From: a virus
Lineage: Duplodnaviria; Caudoviricetes
IMG/VR virus record: IMGVR_UViG_3300050014_000315
Coordinates: 1 to 63,743 of that record
Direction: 5' to 3' (one strand)
Length of the DNA stretch: 63,743 nucleotides
Positions 29,461 to 55,965 of the stretch are shown here, piece by piece. The translations under genes were made by a program, and so were the position numbers. The notes beneath the pieces are model-generated. The model was not told where the DNA came from, searched no databases, and was given only the letters and a program-made list of their open reading frames with translations. How positions within the stretch are numbered: the first letter of the stretch is position 1; each line of letters opens with the position of its first letter.

Positions 29461-29719
29461 GTGACAAATACGACGATTACCCTCTCTATCCGCCGCGCGA
29501 TTCTCCGCTCGGCTAATCAGCCCCAGGCCAACATCGCTATCGAGGTTATCCCCGGTATCGCGCTCGCGCCGCGTAGGCGAGTCCTACTACTGGACCACAC
29601 CGAGCGGAAAAACCATCGTGGATCACCCCGCCGCCTACGGCTGGCCGACCTGGTACCACGCATCCACCAGGCGCGTGCATGTGGGAGAGCAGTGGATCGC
29701 GCAAGCCTGCTCCGCATAG
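29461..29719 (+). pseudogene. Frameshifted small gene upstream of hammerhead
   Basis: GTG with AAGGAG RBS in frame 1; protein-like VGESYYWTTPSGKTIVDHPAAYGWPTWYHASTRR...CSA* in frame 2, which has no own start. Confidence 0.5.
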
Positions 29720-29776
29720 CCCCTGATGAGTCCCTGGGCAGGGGACGAAACGCGGGTTGCTATCCCCGCGTCGGGC
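29706..29776 (+). ncRNA. Type I hammerhead ribozyme
   Basis: GCCC-CTGATGA-GTCCCT(GGGCA)GGGGAC-GAAA-CGCGGG(TTGCTATC)CCCGCG-TC^GGGC; full catalytic core and three stems. Confidence 0.92.
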
Positions 29777-49345: not shown

Positions 49346-49604
49346 AGCGCCTTCTCTTCGGTTTCCCCACCACATGGGGTTCCAAGAGGTCTTTGCTGCA
49401 TATTCCCTGCAACGCGAACCCGACTACCTATCGACCATGACGTAGGCGCTTATGCCGGGATTAACCCGGCCCGGAGCATGGATTTTTGGTTTCGCGGCAA
49501 ACAACGGAACGTGAGAGAGTGCAACGGAGGGGATAACGCTTGTGATGAAGGCCCGCTGCGAGTCGGCCAAGACACCACCGACGCCTTGAAGACGCAGCCA
49601 TCAC
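49346..49604 (-). ncRNA. Candidate structured RNA (unknown class)
   Basis: Several nested complementary segments; strand inferred from flanking genes. Confidence 0.35.
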
Positions 49605-50173
49605 TTGAGAGCCGCCTGAAAATCGAAATCGAACTGCTCGTGAAATCCGAAGGGGGAAATTGGCTCCGGCATGTTTTCAGGCCGCAACCGGACAGCCACC
49701 AAGCCGCCCTGCGTTTCCCCGTCGCGCTCGAATCCAGCACGTAAATAGCAGCGTCCAAAGTCCCGCTTGTGTTTTACTTTTTCTCTGTCAATGAATGTCA
49801 CCATTCCGAGCGCAGGCGGATCTCCGTAGAACCAACGTGTTACCGCGACCGCATCGCGGATTAATTCGCTTGCCAGTGGGCCAGATTCGCGCCGGAAGCA
49901 TGAGTTTACCCACGCTCCCGGCCATCGGTGTTTGACGTATTCCGCGAACGGCCAAGATGTCACCCACAGAGCTCCGCAATTGGGAGTGAGAAGCACAAGG
50001 CATCGACCGGGAGGGGTGAATTGTGGAGTGCCTATCTTTTGGCGGTTGTAGTGGCGGTCTGCAAGTGGAAGAGCGCGCGGGTCCGCGCGATGCGATAAGG
50101 TCCAAAAACTCGATATTGAATCTGTATGGATCACCGTCTTGACCACGGCGTTCCGAGGGGGCCAGTGGGTCAA
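49601..50173 (-). CDS. Mom/XF1762-related GNAT-like protein (putative DNA modification)
   Basis: LADRHYNRQ, ASELIRDAV, GMVTFID, GRCYLRAGF. Confidence 0.55.
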   Translation of the reverse strand: MTHWPPRNAVVKTVIHTDSISSFWTLSHRADPRALPLADRHYNRQKIGTPQFTPPGRCLVLLTPNCGALWVTSWPFAEYVKHRWPGAWVNSCFRRESGPLASELIRDAVAVTRWFYGDPPALGMVTFIDREKVKHKRDFGRCYLRAGFERDGETQGGLVAVRLRPENMPEPISPFGFHEQFDFDFQAALK

Positions 50174-50209
50174 GCACTGGCCCGTGGCCCTCAGAACAAT
50201 TCCAACTTC

Positions 50210-50238
50210 AGATTACGCTAACTCTGGATGGATTGCAA
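50210..50238 (-). promoter_or_regulatory. sigma70-type promoter
   Basis: TTGCAA-17-TAATCT. Confidence 0.6.
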
Positions 50239-50429
50239 GCGAAAACGCAAGGGGCGGTGACCATGCGGGTGAAATCGGATTGTGGAGGCATGGGCATTTT
50301 TGCGCCAACCGCACAGTCACGTACGGTCGCTTACAGAATAGCACTCCAAATAGGGGCTATGCGGAATCCAGTGTAGAATGATGCGGTTCCAGGCGCAAGA
50401 AAATAATTCACCACATTCGGACTTCACTG

Positions 50430-50458
50430 TTGACAACCACGCTGGAATCCGATAAGAT
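50430..50458 (+). promoter_or_regulatory. Leaderless sigma70 promoter inside outer element
   Basis: TTGACA-17-TAAGAT-6-ATG(50465). Confidence 0.75.
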
Positions 50459-50464
50459 AAGAAC

Positions 50465-50773
50465 ATGAAAAAGATCAACTGGACCCTAATCAGAACGCTC
50501 CCGGCAGACGCGGCAATCGTCACGGGCGGGCCGGAGTACGGTTGCTTCCGTTGCGCCCACGTCCCGGCTGGCCGTCATCACGTTGAGATGCTCCTGGCCG
50601 AGACCGGGGAAGGCATCGTGCTCCGACTGCTTGAGCCCCGCAAGGGGCAGCCGTCCAAGTGGGGGCAGGCTCACCTAATCGCTGGCCAGCTTGAAGACTT
50701 CAGAGTGCCCACTTGCGAGGAAAGCCCGCTCAGGCCTCTGGACCTGGAAAATCGGCAGGTGTGGTCATGGTAG
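50465..50773 (+). CDS. Passenger hypothetical protein
   Basis: Leaderless start; 102 aa. Confidence 0.65.
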   Translation: MKKINWTLIRTLPADAAIVTGGPEYGCFRCAHVPAGRHHVEMLLAETGEGIVLRLLEPRKGQPSKWGQAHLIAGQLEDFRVPTCEESPLRPLDLENRQVWSW

Positions 50774-51096
50774 GCGTCCCTGCGGAAACGATGCGACATA
50801 TCTTCCCCGACGCATCGAAGTTGCCAGCGCATATTGACTGCATTTGCTTCCAAGTACAGGCGCATCTCGACGGATACCCGGTTTGGTACGTCCGTGATCT
50901 GCCGGCAAACGGCGGCGACTTCGAATGGACGGAAGACCCGTCAGCCGCCAAGTTGCTTGGGTGGTTCTGGCAGCAACGCTTCCTGGCTTTCTGCCGGCGC
51001 GATACAAACCGACCGAACTATGGGTGCCTGCCGGTCTACCGCTATGAGGAAGCCGGCAAGTACAAGCGGATTTATCGCGGGGAGGTTGCGCGATGA
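50767..51096 (+). CDS. Passenger hypothetical protein
   Basis: Overlapping operon gene. Confidence 0.55.
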   Translation: MVGVPAETMRHIFPDASKLPAHIDCICFQVQAHLDGYPVWYVRDLPANGGDFEWTEDPSAAKLLGWFWQQRFLAFCRRDTNRPNYGCLPVYRYEEAGKYKRIYRGEVAR

Positions 51097-51320
51097 TCGA
51101 ACACGTCAACGGAGTAGTGCTTGGGCCAGTAACCATAACCGCCACTATCCACACGCCAGATGGCAAGCCGTACGGCAACCCGAAGACCTTTGAGATAACG
51201 GAATCATCGGAGGCGAGAATGTGGGCCGAAGGAGTCCGCGCCAATACCCTGCGGAATCTTGGGCTAGAGGCCGCACGTCTCGGATGGGATCGCCCATGGG
51301 AGATGAGAACCCATGACTAA
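51093..51320 (+). CDS. Passenger hypothetical protein
   Basis: ATGA overlap; GGAGG RBS. Confidence 0.6.
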   Translation: MIEHVNGVVLGPVTITATIHTPDGKPYGNPKTFEITESSEARMWAEGVRANTLRNLGLEAARLGWDRPWEMRTHD

Positions 51321-51657
51321 GTGCATTTGCCACGCTGGCTGCGACTGCCAGAATCCAGACCCGAAACCGGGGTCGGCTCGCCTGATTAGCGAGAACTGCC
51401 CAGTACACAACTGGCGACCATATCCCGTTCTCGGCTGCCCAGTGGTGGGAATACATGTTAACGGCGCAATCGATTCTGACGATACCGTCCAAGCACCAAA
51501 GCGGACACGCGAGGAAGCCGCCGAAATGGTTCTACGGTCCATGGTGGCTGACATGCGCCGGCAAGGGTGGAGTCTGAGTAACGAATCGGCAGATCAAATG
51601 GTAGCTAAATTGTCTGCTGAAATACTGGCGCTACCGGCCACACCGGAGTCCGAATGA
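51313..51657 (+). CDS. Passenger Cys-rich hypothetical protein
   Basis: CICHAGCDC...CPVH. Confidence 0.6.
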   Translation: MTKCICHAGCDCQNPDPKPGSARLISENCPVHNWRPYPVLGCPVVGIHVNGAIDSDDTVQAPKRTREEAAEMVLRSMVADMRRQGWSLSNESADQMVAKLSAEILALPATPESE

Positions 51658-51667
51658 GAGGTACCGT

Positions 51668-51775
51668 GTGGGCGTGCCAAACCGTCTCGGGATGAAGGAC
51701 TGGATTGTGTTGGAAACACAAGAGGATGCGTACAATATGGGCTATTCGGAAGACAGTGTGGAAAGTGACAAATGA
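51668..51775 (+). pseudogene. Detached N-terminus of ISL3 transposase
   Basis: GTG(RBS GAGAGG)-GVPNRLGMKDWIVLETQEDAYNM joins in frame to RVVAGKPIQPEVCPRC when 51740-53474 is removed. Confidence 0.8.
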
Positions 51776-52971
51776 GCGATAACACGTCAACAGCGCCGAA
51801 ATCGGAACTTAGCGTAGAAAATCACACTGAAGTCCGAATCGCGCCGTCCTACGATCACGCCGGAATCACGATCTACAATGGCGATGCTCTGGAGATCCTG
51901 CGCCAACTCCCTGATGCCACTGTGAATTGCTGCATCACGTCGCCGCCGTACTGGGGTCTGCGGGATTATGGCACGGCGACGTGGGATGGTGGTGACACGG
52001 AGTGTGATCATCTTCAACCGCGTAAAGGCGGCGAGGGCCCAGCGTTACCGATAAATGGCGGCGGATCAGATCGGGATACTTCGGTTGGGTTGCAGCAGTT
52101 CCATGGGACTTGTCGTAAGTGCGGCGCACGCCGGGTTGATGCCCAGATTGGTCTTGAACGCACGCCCGAAGAATATGTGGCGCGTCTGGTTGATGTCTTC
52201 AGCGAAGTGAATAGAGTGCTGCGCGACGACGGCACCCTTTGGCTGAATCTAGGCGATTCATTCGCAGGTGGCGGGAATAATCGCGGCGGTAATCCAAGCG
52301 AGAAATCGCCCAAGCAGAAAAGCAACCGCGGCGGCTATGGCCAGATCGCCACTCCAATTCCAAAGAGCCTCAAGCCAAAGGATTTGTGTGGCATCCCTTG
52401 GCGCACGGCATTCGCGCTTCAGGAGGACGGCTGGTGGCTCCGTTCGGATATTATCTGGGCCAAGCCGGCGCCGATGCCTGAGAGCGTTACCGACCGGCCA
52501 ACGAAGGCGCACGAGTACATGTTCCTGCTGGCGAAGTCCGAGCGATATTGGTACGACGCCGCAGCTATCCGTGAGCCATTTGCAGATGATCGCATGGGGA
52601 ATCCCAATGGTGGTGGCCAGTACGCGAGGGAACTGTATCCTGTTCGTGGACAGGATGGCCTGCGCACGGGACAATGGACGCGCGGCGAAGAATTAGGAGG
52701 GCGCAACAAGCGTGATGTGTGGACCGTCAATAGCGACCCGTTTCCAGAAGCTCACTTCGCCACGTTTCCGCCTGCGTTGATCCTGCCGTGTGTTCTGGCC
52801 GGCTGCCCGGCCGGCGGAACTGTCCTGGACCCATTCAGCGGGGCTGGGACAACGGCTCTGGTAGCCAAAGAGCAAGGACGCCGGGCCATAGGGATAGAAC
52901 TGAACCCGGATTATGTCTCGATGATCGCCAGAAGACTGCGGCAGGACAATCTGTTTTCAACTCTACTATGA
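51772..52971 (+). CDS. N4-cytosine/N6-adenine DNA methyltransferase (beta class)
   Basis: TSPPYW before DPFSGAGTT; IIWAKP, HFATFP, GIELN. Confidence 0.93.
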   Translation: MSDNTSTAPKSELSVENHTEVRIAPSYDHAGITIYNGDALEILRQLPDATVNCCITSPPYWGLRDYGTATWDGGDTECDHLQPRKGGEGPALPINGGGSDRDTSVGLQQFHGTCRKCGARRVDAQIGLERTPEEYVARLVDVFSEVNRVLRDDGTLWLNLGDSFAGGGNNRGGNPSEKSPKQKSNRGGYGQIATPIPKSLKPKDLCGIPWRTAFALQEDGWWLRSDIIWAKPAPMPESVTDRPTKAHEYMFLLAKSERYWYDAAAIREPFADDRMGNPNGGGQYARELYPVRGQDGLRTGQWTRGEELGGRNKRDVWTVNSDPFPEAHFATFPPALILPCVLAGCPAGGTVLDPFSGAGTTALVAKEQGRRAIGIELNPDYVSMIARRLRQDNLFSTLL

Positions 52972-53174
52972 GGTGGTACATGAATCTAACGAAGCGGTTG
53001 AAGCAGCGAGCTGTGGCTTGGGACTTAGTGGCCGATAATCTTAACCGCCTGCGCGCACTGAAGTTGGAAGAGGCTAATCTGGCGGCTGCGCTATTGGACC
53101 GCGCCAGGCGCGAAAAGGTGGAACTGGAAGAGTTGCTGGCGCTGCTGGACGCTGAAGGTGTAACCGATGTGTGA
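52968..53174 (+). CDS. Small helical passenger protein
   Basis: ATGA overlap with MTase stop (alternative start 52980). Confidence 0.55.
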   Translation: MRWYMNLTKRLKQRAVAWDLVADNLNRLRALKLEEANLAAALLDRARREKVELEELLALLDAEGVTDV

Positions 53175-53379
53175 CATGCCGATGGATAAGATCGACGTGA
53201 CCTGTCCATACTGCTGGTGGCGAGGCAAGCGGCACCCGTACACGTGGGCGGCGCGGCCGTGCCCACGCTGCGGGGAGCCGGTGAGCGGGGAGTGGATCTT
53301 CAAGACCGCCGCCATCCCTGATCGCGAGCAGGCGGCGATTGACATGCTACGCGACATGCGCGGAGGAGCAGATGATTGA
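53167..53379 (+). CDS. Small zinc-ribbon passenger protein
   Basis: CPYC...CPRC. Confidence 0.55.
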   Translation: MCDMPMDKIDVTCPYCWWRGKRHPYTWAARPCPRCGEPVSGEWIFKTAAIPDREQAAIDMLRDMRGGADD

Positions 53380-54689
53380 TGGTTTGGCGTGGGACATTCC
53401 ACAAATCACGAAAGGGGAGACGGATGTCGGTGACAACCTGTTTTCTACACTGGAATCCGCATAGCCACAATATGAGGGTCGTAGCGGGGAAGCCTATACA
53501 GCCCGAAGTCTGCCCGCGTTGCGGTGTGGAAAACCCGCGCGTCTACAAGCACGACCAGCAAGACCAGACGTTCATGGACACGCCCATGCACGGCAAGCGT
53601 GTCGGTATCCAGGTCGTTCGCCAGCGGTGGCGTTGCCTGGAGTGCGGCAAGACCTTCCAGCAACTCCTGCCAGAGATGGATGAGAAGCGGAATATGACGC
53701 GGCGCCTGGTGGACTACATCCAGCAGCACTCCCTGGTCCGAACGTTCACCGAAGTGGCTGACGACGTGGGAGTCAACGAGAAGACCGTCCGGAATGTCTT
53801 CCGCGAGTACGTTGCACTGCTGGAGGAAGACCGCGAGATTGAGACGCCAACATGGCTGGGCATTGACGAACTGTTCCTGATCCGGAAGCCGCGGTGCATC
53901 TTCACCGACGTGAAGAAACGATCCATCGTTGACTTGCTGGCCAAGCGGGACAAGCTGACGGTCTCCAAATGGCTCACAAACCTACCCCATAAGGCCACAG
54001 TTGAAGTGGTGACCATGGATATGTGGAAGCCCTACCGGGACGCGGCACAGGCACTCCTGCCGGCCGCCAAGGTGGTCGTAGACAAGTTCCACGTCGTCAA
54101 GATGGCAAACAAGTGCTTGGACGATACCAGGAAGCGACTGCGGGCCGATATGACCACTGCTGACCGGCGCAAACTCATGCGTGACCGGCATATCATCCTG
54201 AAACGCGAGAAGGACTTGGACGTGATGGACCACGCGGCCATGGAAGTGTGGACCGGAATGTTGCCGGAACTTTACTACGGCTACCAGGCCAAGGAACGGT
54301 TCTTTGGCGTCTACGACGCACCAGACCGCAAGGAAGGGCAGGAACGATACGACGCTTGGCTGGGCAGTCTGGACATGCTCACGCGCGTGAACTTCAAGGA
54401 ACTCATCACTGCCTGCGAGAACTGGAAGCCGGAGATCCTGAACTACTTCGGGACCGGCGCGACGAACGCCTACACGGAAGCCGCCAACGGGCTGGCCAAG
54501 ATAGCGAACCGCAACGGAAGCGGCTACTCGTTCGAGGCGATACGCGCCAAGATCATCTACGGTAGTTCGGTCAAACGCGGCAAGTTCGGCGAGTCGTGCG
54601 TGGACGAGGAAATCTTCGCGGAACTCACGCGCCCGGTTGTGGAAACTCCACAGCCGACCGAAGAAGAGGAGACAGAAGGTGGTCAGTGA
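53379..54689 (+). CDS. ISL3-family transposase (body; native N-terminus displaced to 51668)
   Basis: CPRC...RWRCLECGKTF, LGIDE, TMDMWKPY, DKFHVV, TNAYTEAAN. Confidence 0.93.
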   Translation: MVWRGTFHKSRKGRRMSVTTCFLHWNPHSHNMRVVAGKPIQPEVCPRCGVENPRVYKHDQQDQTFMDTPMHGKRVGIQVVRQRWRCLECGKTFQQLLPEMDEKRNMTRRLVDYIQQHSLVRTFTEVADDVGVNEKTVRNVFREYVALLEEDREIETPTWLGIDELFLIRKPRCIFTDVKKRSIVDLLAKRDKLTVSKWLTNLPHKATVEVVTMDMWKPYRDAAQALLPAAKVVVDKFHVVKMANKCLDDTRKRLRADMTTADRRKLMRDRHIILKREKDLDVMDHAAMEVWTGMLPELYYGYQAKERFFGVYDAPDRKEGQERYDAWLGSLDMLTRVNFKELITACENWKPEILNYFGTGATNAYTEAANGLAKIANRNGSGYSFEAIRAKIIYGSSVKRGKFGESCVDEEIFAELTRPVVETPQPTEEEETEGGQ

Positions 54690-54719
54690 CTTTCACCACT
54701 CAAATCCGAATAGCCGGAA

Positions 54720-55166
54720 TTATTTGACTCCGATGATCGTGAGCAATGACTTGTTCTTCTTCGGTTGGACTGTTTTCGCCGCCGCACTCGCTGCCGCGAT
54801 GGCTTCGCGATTTCGGGAGATCCCCGCGCGGTTATCGGCGTCTGACTGCCTGTTCCGTAACTCTGCCCGGTCGGTGCGTTCATCCACGATGGTCCGGTAC
54901 TGGGTGAGTTCGATTGCCAGCCGATTGAAGCCGTCAGCCATCGCTTCATTGGCGTTGATCTGCCGCAGGTTGATGCCGTCCTGGTTTATTTTGGCGGTCT
55001 CCAACGCGGCAAGGCGGGCGTTCTGCTGGCCTTGCCAGTATCCGGCGGCGGAGACTACCCCGGCCACGGAAAATAAGTAGGAGGCTAGGGTGAGCATCAG
55101 CGCGAGTAGGCTGATATTCACCCCTCCGGGAATCTTCGTAATTACTGGCTCGCTGTGGTGGTTCAT
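54720..55166 (-). CDS. Membrane-anchored coiled-coil protein (lysis-region, holin/spanin-like)
   Basis: One TM segment ISLLALMLTLASYLFSVAGVVSAAGYW then helical. Confidence 0.5.
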   Translation of the reverse strand: MNHHSEPVITKIPGGVNISLLALMLTLASYLFSVAGVVSAAGYWQGQQNARLAALETAKINQDGINLRQINANEAMADGFNRLAIELTQYRTIVDERTDRAELRNRQSDADNRAGISRNREAIAAASAAAKTVQPKKNKSLLTIIGVK

Positions 55167-55210
55167 ATTCTCCCTTCTGGCATCTGTATCGCCGCCGAAT
55201 CTGGTAATCA

Positions 55211-55426
55211 TTACTTACTAGCCTGGTCCTTACTGGGGGGCGCATTCACGCCCGAAACATTCGAGTCTTTCCCGAAGATTCCCAAACTAGCGAATCCTCC
55301 GGCCATGACGAACGCAGCGGTTACGATCGCCCACTTAGGGAGAGGTACGCCTGCCGTGCTCAGAGCCAGCACCAGCCCGGCGCCGGATGAAACAAATCCC
55401 GATAGAGTCGTTTTCCAAGATCGCAT
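55211..55426 (-). CDS. Putative holin
   Basis: 71 aa; MRSWKTTLSG, two TM segments, FGKDSNV; RBS AGGAG. Confidence 0.7.
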   Translation of the reverse strand: MRSWKTTLSGFVSSGAGLVLALSTAGVPLPKWAIVTAAFVMAGGFASLGIFGKDSNVSGVNAPPSKDQASK

Positions 55427-55434
55427 GGTTTCTC

Positions 55435-55965
55435 CTACGGCTTGAACGAAATTCCGATGCGCGGAATCAGGTTCCACGCGCCGTTGATATATACCCCGCC
55501 CAGCGGTACCACTACGGCCCACTGCGGCTTGAAACGGTAGATAATGGTCGCCTGGAAGCTCCCGGCCAGCGATACGTTCACGCCGCTTGGTTGCGCCTGG
55601 CTGAAACCCGCGCCCGCATCGCCGCCGATCAGAAACCGCCAGTTGCCGGCGGCGTAGACCTGTTTGTGAACGCCCTGGCGCACGCTGGAACTGAAGCCCC
55701 AGTACACGCGTTTGGTAATCGGGTCGATGATTTGCACCGGCGCAATATCCGTGCTGGTGCTCAGATACAGCCCGAGCGAACTGGCGACCGGGTACACAGC
55801 GGAAGCAAACAAGTTCACGCGCGGATTGCCGATCTGGTTGAAACTCGCGCCGGCGGAAATGTACGTCGGCATGGCAACCGTGGCGACGGTGGGCGCGATG
55901 GGTGTAACGGTCTGCGCCGCCGCCGTGAGGCAGAGGCACGCGAATAGAGCGGTGATCGTTTTCAT
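55435..55965 (-). CDS. Secreted outer-membrane beta-barrel-like protein
   Basis: Signal peptide MKTITALFACLCLTAAA; alternating beta strands; ends RIGISFKP. Confidence 0.6.
   Translation of the reverse strand: MKTITALFACLCLTAAAQTVTPIAPTVATVAMPTYISAGASFNQIGNPRVNLFASAVYPVASSLGLYLSTSTDIAPVQIIDPITKRVYWGFSSSVRQGVHKQVYAAGNWRFLIGGDAGAGFSQAQPSGVNVSLAGSFQATIIYRFKPQWAVVVPLGGVYINGAWNLIPRIGISFKP

Follow-up and report, generated by a model that had tools for sequence, protein, structure and literature searches.

A methylase cassette nested in a related, cargo-bearing ISL3-type transposon of a peat phage genome

Introduction

When one mobile element lies inside the transposase gene of another, the question arises whether the gene was an ordinary landing site or whether the arrangement serves one of the two elements. 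This question is raised by a phage genome from peat, in which a gene for an ISL3-family transposase is split after codon 24 by a 1727-bp element that carries a DNA methyltransferase (methylase) gene. The genome is represented by IMG/VR virus record IMGVR_UViG_3300050014_000315 (Duplodnaviria; Caudoviricetes), which is 69% complete according to CheckV and whose phage nature is indicated by matches to a terminase large subunit and a DnaB-like helicase. The window, by which we mean the whole stretch of DNA that was analysed, comprises 63,743 nucleotides, positions 1 to 63,743 of this record. An earlier note on this DNA had described the insertion as a non-autonomous methylase-carrying ISL3 element that is wired into the operon and targets its helper without necessarily inactivating it, or as an excision-controlled switch that links methylation with mobility.

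In our analysis, positions 50355-54715 probably represent two related ISL3 transposons nested in the phage genome: an autonomous transporter insertion sequence (IS), and a methylase cassette that entered it after being moved in trans. The nested transposition is real and ordinary; the cassette family exposed by it is less ordinary.

Results

Nested insertion, empty site and copies elsewhere

Parts of 50300-54800 are contained in 24 public runs from 16 studies, four of which were compared at the contig level: X1, the likely source run, and the non-source runs X23, X3 and X5. The runs were compared as assembled contigs, from which rare variants and excision products are dropped. Relatives in metagenome assemblies were collected with a degenerate end pattern that matched 95 stretches, and the family counts refer to 80 of these 95 loci, with 85 ends. 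We distinguished the end types E1 (outer left, at 50355), E2 (cassette left), E3 (cassette right) and E4 (outer right); the 85 ends comprised 23 of the cassette-left type, 8 of the cassette-right type, 22 and 5 of the outer-element types, and 27 others.

The inner element occupies 51740-53466 on the plus strand. Its left inverted repeat (E2, 51740-51769, plus strand) and right inverted repeat (E3, 53442-53466, minus strand) match at 20 of 25 positions when 51740-51764 is compared with 53442-53466 (pair I2), and the element is flanked by two perfect copies of the 8-mer ACAATATG, at 51732-51739 and 53467-53474 (a strandless feature), a duplication expected by chance with a probability of about 1.5e-5. 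Pfam and PHROGs comparisons of 51740-53466 revealed no transposase domain, only the methylase domain and weak zinc-ribbon matches. The description of a 1727-bp element bounded by terminal inverted repeats and a perfect 8-bp target-site duplication in the earlier note was therefore confirmed.

The same note had staked its reading on the existence of an empty allele and of the cassette at other loci, and both were found. Contigs of all three non-source runs join 51731 directly to 53467, skipping 1735 nt, which equals the 1727-bp element plus one 8-bp copy, and the eight letters fit on either side of this joint. The metagenome contig L197 runs uninterrupted across the predicted empty site with a single copy of ACAATATG, and four further loci (L222, L232, L252 and L268) likewise carry an uninterrupted transposase gene; in all five, codons 1-24 are contiguous with the transposase body. 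Conversely, the whole cassette recurs at locus L203, with 98.9% identity over 1728 nt and in unrelated flanks. In X23, X3 and X5, contigs depart from the window precisely at the two cassette borders, 51739/51740 and 53466, with different flanks beyond the latter position, and in X3 the word depth of the cassette was approximately 25, versus 0-5 for the transposase body. A gene-less form of the cassette, with the joint 51863->53392, was also present in X3.

A search for a second copy of the transposase body or of the cassette in the same record found none, and only the 24-nt end at 50355 turned up. An 11-mer at 29711-29721 that resembles an end was rejected as a chance match because the similarity stops there.

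The outer element carries cargo of its own

The earlier note had missed the real left end of the interrupted element, at 50355, together with four cargo open reading frames (ORFs). The outer left inverted repeat E1 (50355-50378, plus strand) is identical at 23 of 24 positions to the reverse complement of the inner right end, and the outer right inverted repeat E4 (54686-54715, minus strand; pair I1) is of the type found 22 times in the metagenome loci. The best-matching ends are thus interleaved rather than nested, with the outer left end resembling the inner right end and the inner left end being closest to the outer right end. All genes within 50465-54689 are on the plus strand, lying between minus-strand phage genes, and the element (50355-54715) would be 2626 bp long without its insert.

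A left module of approximately 100 bp opens the element and contains, immediately ahead of the first cargo ATG, a promoter-like site, TTGACA-17-TAAGAT (50430-50458, plus strand; 10/12 matches to the consensus), which overlaps a subterminal end-motif copy; this end motif is also conserved in L232 and L266, and the site is regarded here as a putative promoter. A 24-codon mini-ORF (50378-50455) in the same module stops just before the first cargo ATG and is similar, in its C-terminal half, to the leader peptide that the methylases of the cassettes have. A second X1 contig contains the window's 50358-50454 module with 8 of its 97 nt changed and is flanked differently on either side; more than one element of the outer type is present in the likely source sample.

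The four small cargo ORFs that follow (50465-50773, 50767-51096, 51093-51320 and 51313-51657, all plus strand) have overlapping stops and starts. None of the four had a PHROGs match, Pfam found nothing for the last two ORFs, to which that search was applied, and no homologues were found among 106 loci except for one marginal zinc-ribbon match. Directly before the transposase start lies a right-end-like motif (51638-51660, plus strand; repeats D3 and I21), which contains the stop of the last cargo ORF and a GAGAGG ribosome-binding-like site, and the contigs of X23, X3 and X5 part from the window exactly at 51638/51639. The right-end-like motif also closes the last cargo ORF in L232 (approximately 1745-1785) and L252 (approximately 2040-2065). 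The cargo ORF tails that terminate in this motif read ...PESE or ...LESE, in the same frame as the ...LESA tails of methylases in true right ends. An earlier nested insertion may have left this motif behind, as an internal end that then decayed.

The limits of the outer element were reflected in other samples. None of X23, X3 and X5 has cover outside 50304-54725. E1 and its module of approximately 100 bp also occur in contigs L197, L232 and L266 in other flanks. The cargo of L197 is 98.3% identical to that of the window, with other flanking sequence outside E1, and L232 is a complete 2978-bp element that has E1 and E4 ends, an intact transposase gene, a different cargo of 1.5 kb and a perfect 8-bp duplication, AGTGATTC. 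The cargo varies among close relatives (window/L197, L232, L252 and L266), whereas its limits, the left module and the motif just before the transposase start, are constant. Given the fourth end, the limits of cover in the other runs and the complete unit in L232, we conclude that the outer element is a cargo-bearing ISL3 transposon and not a plain IS. A related layout was observed in the viral contig L007 (1949-7219), where a 55% identical transposase has a matching left end approximately 4 kb upstream and a right-end-like motif just before its start; the interior holds RecT-like, nuclease-like and methylase-like genes on the opposite strand.

The transposase gene is split at a conserved N-terminus

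Codons 1-24 of the transposase remain as an orphan N-terminus (51668-51739, plus strand) that aligns with the N-termini of ISL3 transposases from viral contigs up to the break, and codons 25-428 with the stop follow the cassette (53475-54689, plus strand). The body retains the zinc ribbon PF14690 (E = 2.2e-11) and the helix-turn-helix domain PF13542 (E = 2.5e-10), both exceeding their gathering scores, as well as the DDE_Tnp_ISL3 domain PF01610 (E = 3.2e-55, profile positions 1-240 of 240). Precise removal of the insert gives 24 + 404 = 428 aa, the length of the intact relative L232:1789-3075. The body shows dN/dS values of 0.05-0.13 against six relatives (L268, L222, L232 and L252, and the partial L240 and L215); the window copy has no internal stop, and one stop was found among the six relatives, in L252.

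On the 5' side of the cassette, the orphan N-terminus reads on to a TGA at 51773-51775, which overlaps the methylase ATG at 51772. On the 3' side, the frame 53376-54689 is open through the right repeat, the reading frame of the transposase body includes ATGs at 53379 and 53424, and the ORF from 53376 retains all three domains. These structural claims of the earlier note, including the 428-aa restored frame and the survival of the zinc finger and DDE core in the downstream ORF, were all borne out. Its suggestion that the insertion need not inactivate the helper is doubtful. Leu7 is invariant in 23 of 23 sequences (alignment A1), and a model of the intact L232 protein (mean pLDDT 87.9, pTM 0.79) contains an N-terminal beta-hairpin with strands at residues 13-19 and 23-29 (pLDDT 92-93); both Leu7 and the first hairpin strand lie within residues 1-24, which the insertion cuts off. 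Judging from the alignment and the structure model, the transposase is probably impaired by the loss of this conserved strand and of Leu7.

Conserved cassette ends surround exchanged methylase cores

The first gene of the window's cassette (51772-52971, plus strand) encodes a 399-aa protein that matches PF01555 (E = 1.7e-47, profile positions 1-220 of 221) and phrog_67, 'DNA methyltransferase' (E = 4.5e-77). Its translation contains SPPY at residues 57-60, an instance of (D/S)PPY, which we take to be the catalytic motif of N6/N4 methylases, and the ORF is accordingly annotated as a predicted N6/N4 DNA methylase. Two small plus-strand ORFs follow. The first (52980-53174, 64 aa) has no Pfam or PHROGs match and is conserved in L203; the second (53167-53379, 70 aa) is Cys-rich and zinc-ribbon-like, with zinc-ribbon Pfam matches only below threshold, and is identical in L203. 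In Protein Atlas the 70-aa ORF scored 0.93 with few shared features and a 114-aa ORF scored 0.79, values that serve only as leads. No restriction endonuclease gene was found beside the methylase, the 64-aa and 70-aa ORFs having no Pfam or PHROGs family, and we therefore treat the methylase as an orphan.

Ten complete elements with the cassette end types were recovered, ranging from 823 to 1727 bp. In eight of the ten, a single ORF ends at a TAG 2 bases from the right tip; for five of these ORFs the start is an ATG that lies 33 or 36 bases in from the left tip, and in the other three elements a 76-77-aa ORF from that ATG comes first. Besides L203, whose cassette is the window's cassette itself, eight of the nine complete elements carry a PF01555 methylase ORF above the gathering score (ORFs of at least 235 aa were scanned), and the ninth, L273, does not carry a methylase. 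Further PF01555 enzymes lie behind E2-type left ends in L260, L271 and L191, and C5 cytosine methylases (PF00145) in L234, L212, L219, L221 and L228. L234 (816-2661, 1846 bp) combines a left end of the cassette type with a right end of the outer type, and the last residues of its cargo, a 595-aa C5 methylase (PF00145), are those of the C-terminal tail of the transposase.

The methylase cores are 23-41% identical, apart from one pair at 87%, whereas the last 45 residues are 71-98% identical; the first residues are also conserved, as judged by eye. On these sequence comparisons, the enzyme cores are swapped between conserved ends, and this exchange would extend to both N6/N4 and C5 enzymes. The tail ...DNLFSTLESA closes the full methylase ORFs of L249, L241, L200, L258, L259 and L272, with one-residue variants in L250 (...TLESE) and L224 (...TPESA). 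In the window it is encoded at 53339-53464 (plus strand) with a stop 2 nt from the tip, and the window's cassette is a derived member of the family, in which the methylase terminates at a stop of its own, ahead of two small ORFs, and the tail is only a relic.

Dozens of relatives of this family come from peat, permafrost and freshwater assemblies. A scan of viral contigs for the ends yielded three stretches only. One of them, L191 (G001), has a cassette-type left end and an 88-89% identical methylase, but the 3.6 kb examined at this locus contained no right end; the other two have one and the same left flank, joined to a different methylase. In the viral record L193 (G001:C1:5227-6491), a left end of the cassette type and the 88-89% identical methylase are followed by a different Cys-rich ORF, again with no right end in the 3.6 kb inspected. 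Among GenBank phages, only patchy methylase similarity (69-75%) was observed.

Expression signals at the cassette ends are a family property

The left repeat of the window's cassette places stops in all three incoming frames (first stop bases 51766, 51773 and 51780) around the methylase ATG. The same design, with all three frames stopped between +20 and +44 and the stops bracketing the ATG, was found in 24 of the 25 distinct E2-type left ends, and the stop in the third frame is supplied as TAA, TAG or TGA by three sequence sub-variants. Because nearly all ends have this pattern and each sub-variant provides the third stop in its own way, the pattern points to selection for stop-restart coupling, in which ribosomes that terminate in the receiving operon would restart at the methylase. 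Alternatively, an RNA hairpin could damp read-through expression: a subterminal inverted copy of the left repeat (51821-51845, plus strand; pair I7) lies within the leader coding region of the methylase, and the hairpin predicted between the two has a folding energy of -32.2 kcal/mol (z = -2.47, equalled by 2 of 200 shuffles). Predicted RNA folds of the E1 module, the transposase leader and the right end were no better than those of shuffled sequences (z = -0.27, -0.77 and +0.08, respectively).

At the other end, the ATG at 53424 is preceded at 7-8 nt by a Shine-Dalgarno (SD)-like sequence, AAGGGGAG, and seven of seven distinct right ends have an SD-like site with an outward ATG 43 nt inside the tip. 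Both signals lie in an alternative frame of the conserved methylase C-terminal tail, so their conservation needs no function of its own, and the in-frame fit of the outward ATG with the transposase had a 1-in-3 chance. The view that the cassette is wired into this operon can thus be kept in part: the overlap and the in-frame ATGs are real, whereas wiring specific to this site is not supported, as 24/25 left ends and 7/7 right ends carry the same features. The 'wiring' is a generic property of cassette ends, not an adaptation to this site.

Consensus scans found no promoter-like site in the left module of the cassette and no plus-strand terminator-like site within 50200-54900. Because the genes of 50465-54689 run in the same direction with no terminator-like site between them, these scans suggest that the methylase is most likely co-transcribed with the cargo of the outer element.

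Weighing the explanations

The open frame downstream of the methylase raises the prospect that a new autonomous transposon has been born here. A transposase started at ATG 53424, ATG 53379 or Met24 would then work, the unit 51740-54715 would be self-mobile, and the internal right repeat would decay into the motif that precedes the transposase gene in outer-type elements. Several observations fit: translation could run from 53376 through the right repeat into a body with low dN/dS and without stops; the start signals before ATG 53424 are laid out as in all seven distinct right ends; the 51740 and 54715 ends match in 23 of 30 positions (I1) and represent the same end-type pair as in the 1846-bp L234 element; in outer-type elements the last cargo ORF stops within the right-end-like motif in the frame of the methylase tail; and in L266 the transposase starts four codons before the break, overlapping the stop of the preceding ORF. 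However, this unit was seen at no other site in the contigs examined, the missing residues hold the invariant Leu7 and one strand of a confidently modelled hairpin, the conserved start signals need no role of their own, as they lie in the other frame of the methylase tail, and an in-frame junction had a 1-in-3 chance; we consider the explanation unlikely. A directed attack, in which the cassette or its family prefers this transposase site and thereby tames or exploits its helper, appears more doubtful still, although four structures break at or within approximately 12 nt of codon 24. Besides the window, these are, at the equivalent of its positions 51725-51739, L210, where an in-frame deletion is joined exactly after ACAATATG, from codon 24 to the transposase C-terminal tail; L254, which diverges after CACAATA; and L266, where the upstream part is replaced up to approximately 10 nt before the 8-mer and a new upstream ORF overlaps the shortened transposase start. 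The shared breakpoints hint at a fragile or favoured spot, but no cassette end is present at those of L210, L254 and L266, every other E2/E3 end examined lies in unrelated AT-rich flanks, and ACAATATG is an AT-rich island in a GC-rich gene, in keeping with a general target preference. The claim that the cassette targets its helper is therefore unsupported.

For a switch in which reversible precise excision toggles the transposase and so links methylation with mobility, the existence of the empty form in other samples would be a prerequisite, and removal of the element with one duplication copy does restore the frame. Yet X1 contigs showed the occupied form only, the joint 51731->53467 being absent from these assemblies, in which rare variants are lost, and the empty copies differ by 7-13% in the transposase body, so they look like never-occupied relatives rather than revertants. 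The many kinds of methylase in the family also argue against a common regulatory methylation site in the ends. With no sign of excision in these data, the switch is very improbable. We give even less credence to an assembly artefact in which repeat copies were joined chimerically. The samples do contain multiple copies of the family, and several contigs do look recombinant or chimeric at end modules, but a chimeric join would not yield a perfect 8-bp duplication with the two ORF halves in frame, and an independent X1 Logan contig of 12,904 nt, which may come from the same sample, spans 49500-55500 without a difference.

The preferred explanation, nested transposition of a cassette moved in trans, also has observations against it. 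The outer element shows no target duplication in the window (CAAATAGG versus GGAATTAT), and no empty phage site for it was found in viral contigs; synteny did not extend past the upstream 190-aa gene in any of the 80 viral loci that carry relatives of it, and for the downstream 163-aa gene no relative turned up in viral contigs. Among nine other complete E2/E3 elements with both flanks, only one (L249, AAGAAATC) has a perfect 8-bp duplication, and L203, despite its near-identical cassette, is among those without. Flanks are also shared in unexpected ways: TTGTTCTC is the left flank in L270, L190 and L192 but the right flank in L241 and L205, and one left flank is joined to two different cassettes, those of L200 and L203. 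Recombination between copies, or chimeric assembly within a repeat family, may account for the missing duplications and the shared flanks, and the scarcity of duplications weakens a simple cut-and-paste history for every copy. A transposase that is impaired sits uneasily with a body that is still an open frame of low dN/dS, and with the natural variant L266, whose transposase starts only approximately 4 codons before the break. The evidence for promoter and terminators consists of consensus matches only, assembled contigs are blind to rare excision products, and none of 13 species-representative genome matches had E1-E4 end types, all showing other ISL3 end types.

Discussion

Taken together, these results support an ordinary sequence of events. 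The outer element would be an autonomous transporter IS with, from left to right, a left module with a promoter-like site, four cargo ORFs, the transposase gene and the right end. Into the AT-rich 8-mer at codon 24 of its transposase gene, a mobile insertion cassette with an orphan N6/N4 methylase would have entered by ordinary ISL3 transposition, and in this part, an ISL3-type element that lacks autonomy, carries a methylase and sits within a related element's transposase gene, the earlier note was borne out. An ISL3 transposase of this lineage presumably acted in trans, as suggested by the similarity of the ends and by the co-occurrence of both partners in X23, X3 and X5. Because the insertion removes the conserved N-terminal strand of the transposase, the outer element is probably no longer self-sufficient and would depend on intact copies elsewhere.

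The ends of the cassette family appear to be built for expression from whatever operon receives them. The left repeat closes the three incoming frames within a few bases of its own ATG, which would allow stop-restart coupling, and in small family members the methylase ORF extends to a stop inside the right repeat. A broader and more tentative proposal, which we hold at somewhat below an even chance, joins these observations: an ISL3-derived lineage without transposase may have specialised in moving methylases, its ends doubling as the start and the tail of the methylase ORF, its core being swapped by recombination across N6/N4 and C5 enzymes and its stop-restart ends being readable from any operon, with phages gaining protective methylation and the nested copy representing a snapshot of how cargo-bearing ISL3 elements originate. 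If so, a cassette would land at the 5' end of a transposase gene, the left end of the cassette and the right end of the IS would become the new termini, and the internal right end would then decay into the motif upstream of the transposase. Phages that pick up such cassettes would gain new methylation patterns that protect against host restriction.

Orphan DNA methylases are common in phages and bacteria, where they shape restriction barriers and epigenetic regulation. Their spread has mostly been deduced from context; here a concrete vehicle is visible, with identifiable ends, transposases of the same lineage in the same samples (one of them the target), an empty site and dozens of relatives. 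The shuffling of methylation specificity on a transposon chassis, the expression of cassettes by translational coupling from host operons and the origin of cargo-bearing ISs by nested insertion thereby become testable.

The ISL3 family, as compiled in ISfinder, has imperfect terminal inverted repeats and generates 8-bp target duplications. Both traits recur here, as repeats I1 and I2 and as the 8-bp duplications of the window, L232 and L249. The elements further resemble this family in the combination of PF01610, PF14690 and PF13542, in their GG-starting imperfect repeats of approximately 25-30 bp and in the AT-rich targets of their 8-bp duplications, and eight of the 12 matched records listed are annotated 'ISL3 family transposase'. 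They differ in the distance of the transposase, which is at most 47% identical to the matches listed, below 60% in all 3529 matching plasmid records and at most 58% identical to 26 viral-contig relatives, and in the placement of cargo between a left module of approximately 100 bp and the transposase gene, with a right-end-like motif just before the latter.

Mobile insertion cassettes (MICs) and MITEs (miniature transposable elements with inverted repeats) have IS-type ends, lack a transposase and are moved in trans by a cognate transposase, according to the parts of the source considered here (PMC3129680). The cassette corresponds to a MIC in that IS-type repeats enclose passengers without a transposase and that a duplication, an empty site and copies elsewhere were found; related intact transposases occur in the same samples, and the gene-less form in X3 is a further likeness. 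Unlike MICs and MITEs in general, the cassette family almost always carries a DNA methylase, whose ORF starts in the left module and in small members stops inside the right repeat, and between its conserved ends one enzyme core replaces another, even across two methylase superfamilies. Transporter ISs (tISs) are ISs with passenger genes, as described in the sections of the two sources used (PMC3129680, PMC9330008). The outer element likewise holds passengers and a transposase gene inside its repeats, L232 being such a unit complete with a duplication and L197 carrying the same cargo and transposase gene in another flank; it differs in that the passengers lie upstream of the transposase gene, form one operon-like string and vary between close copies. 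ISPpu12 is an ISL3 example of a transporter IS.

A further parallel is that of Furuta et al. 2010, who described restriction-modification or orphan methylase units with imperfect inverted repeats and 8-bp duplications, for which the transposase was unknown and action in trans was raised as a possibility (PMC2853133). The cassette shares with those units, as far as they are described there, a methylase between imperfect inverted repeats and an 8-bp duplication. In contrast to that description, the repeats here are assignable to an IS family, the cassette showed no restriction gene, the family is large, and transposase genes with matching ends are present in the same samples, one of them being the insertion target. 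An IS within an IS has also been reported, ISAba825 in an ISAba3-like element, in the excerpt consulted (PMC9330008). The window resembles that example in having one IS-type element inside another, but by comparison with what is stated there, the insert here lacks autonomy, belongs to the family of its target and interrupts the coding sequence of the transposase, whose orientation and frame it shares. Full-text searches of the literature found no methylase-carrying cassette family of the ISL3 type, supplements (for example, that of PMC2853133) aside. MICs and tISs are established categories; what would be new here, on the evidence of the sequences compared, is an ISL3 cassette family dedicated to methylases.

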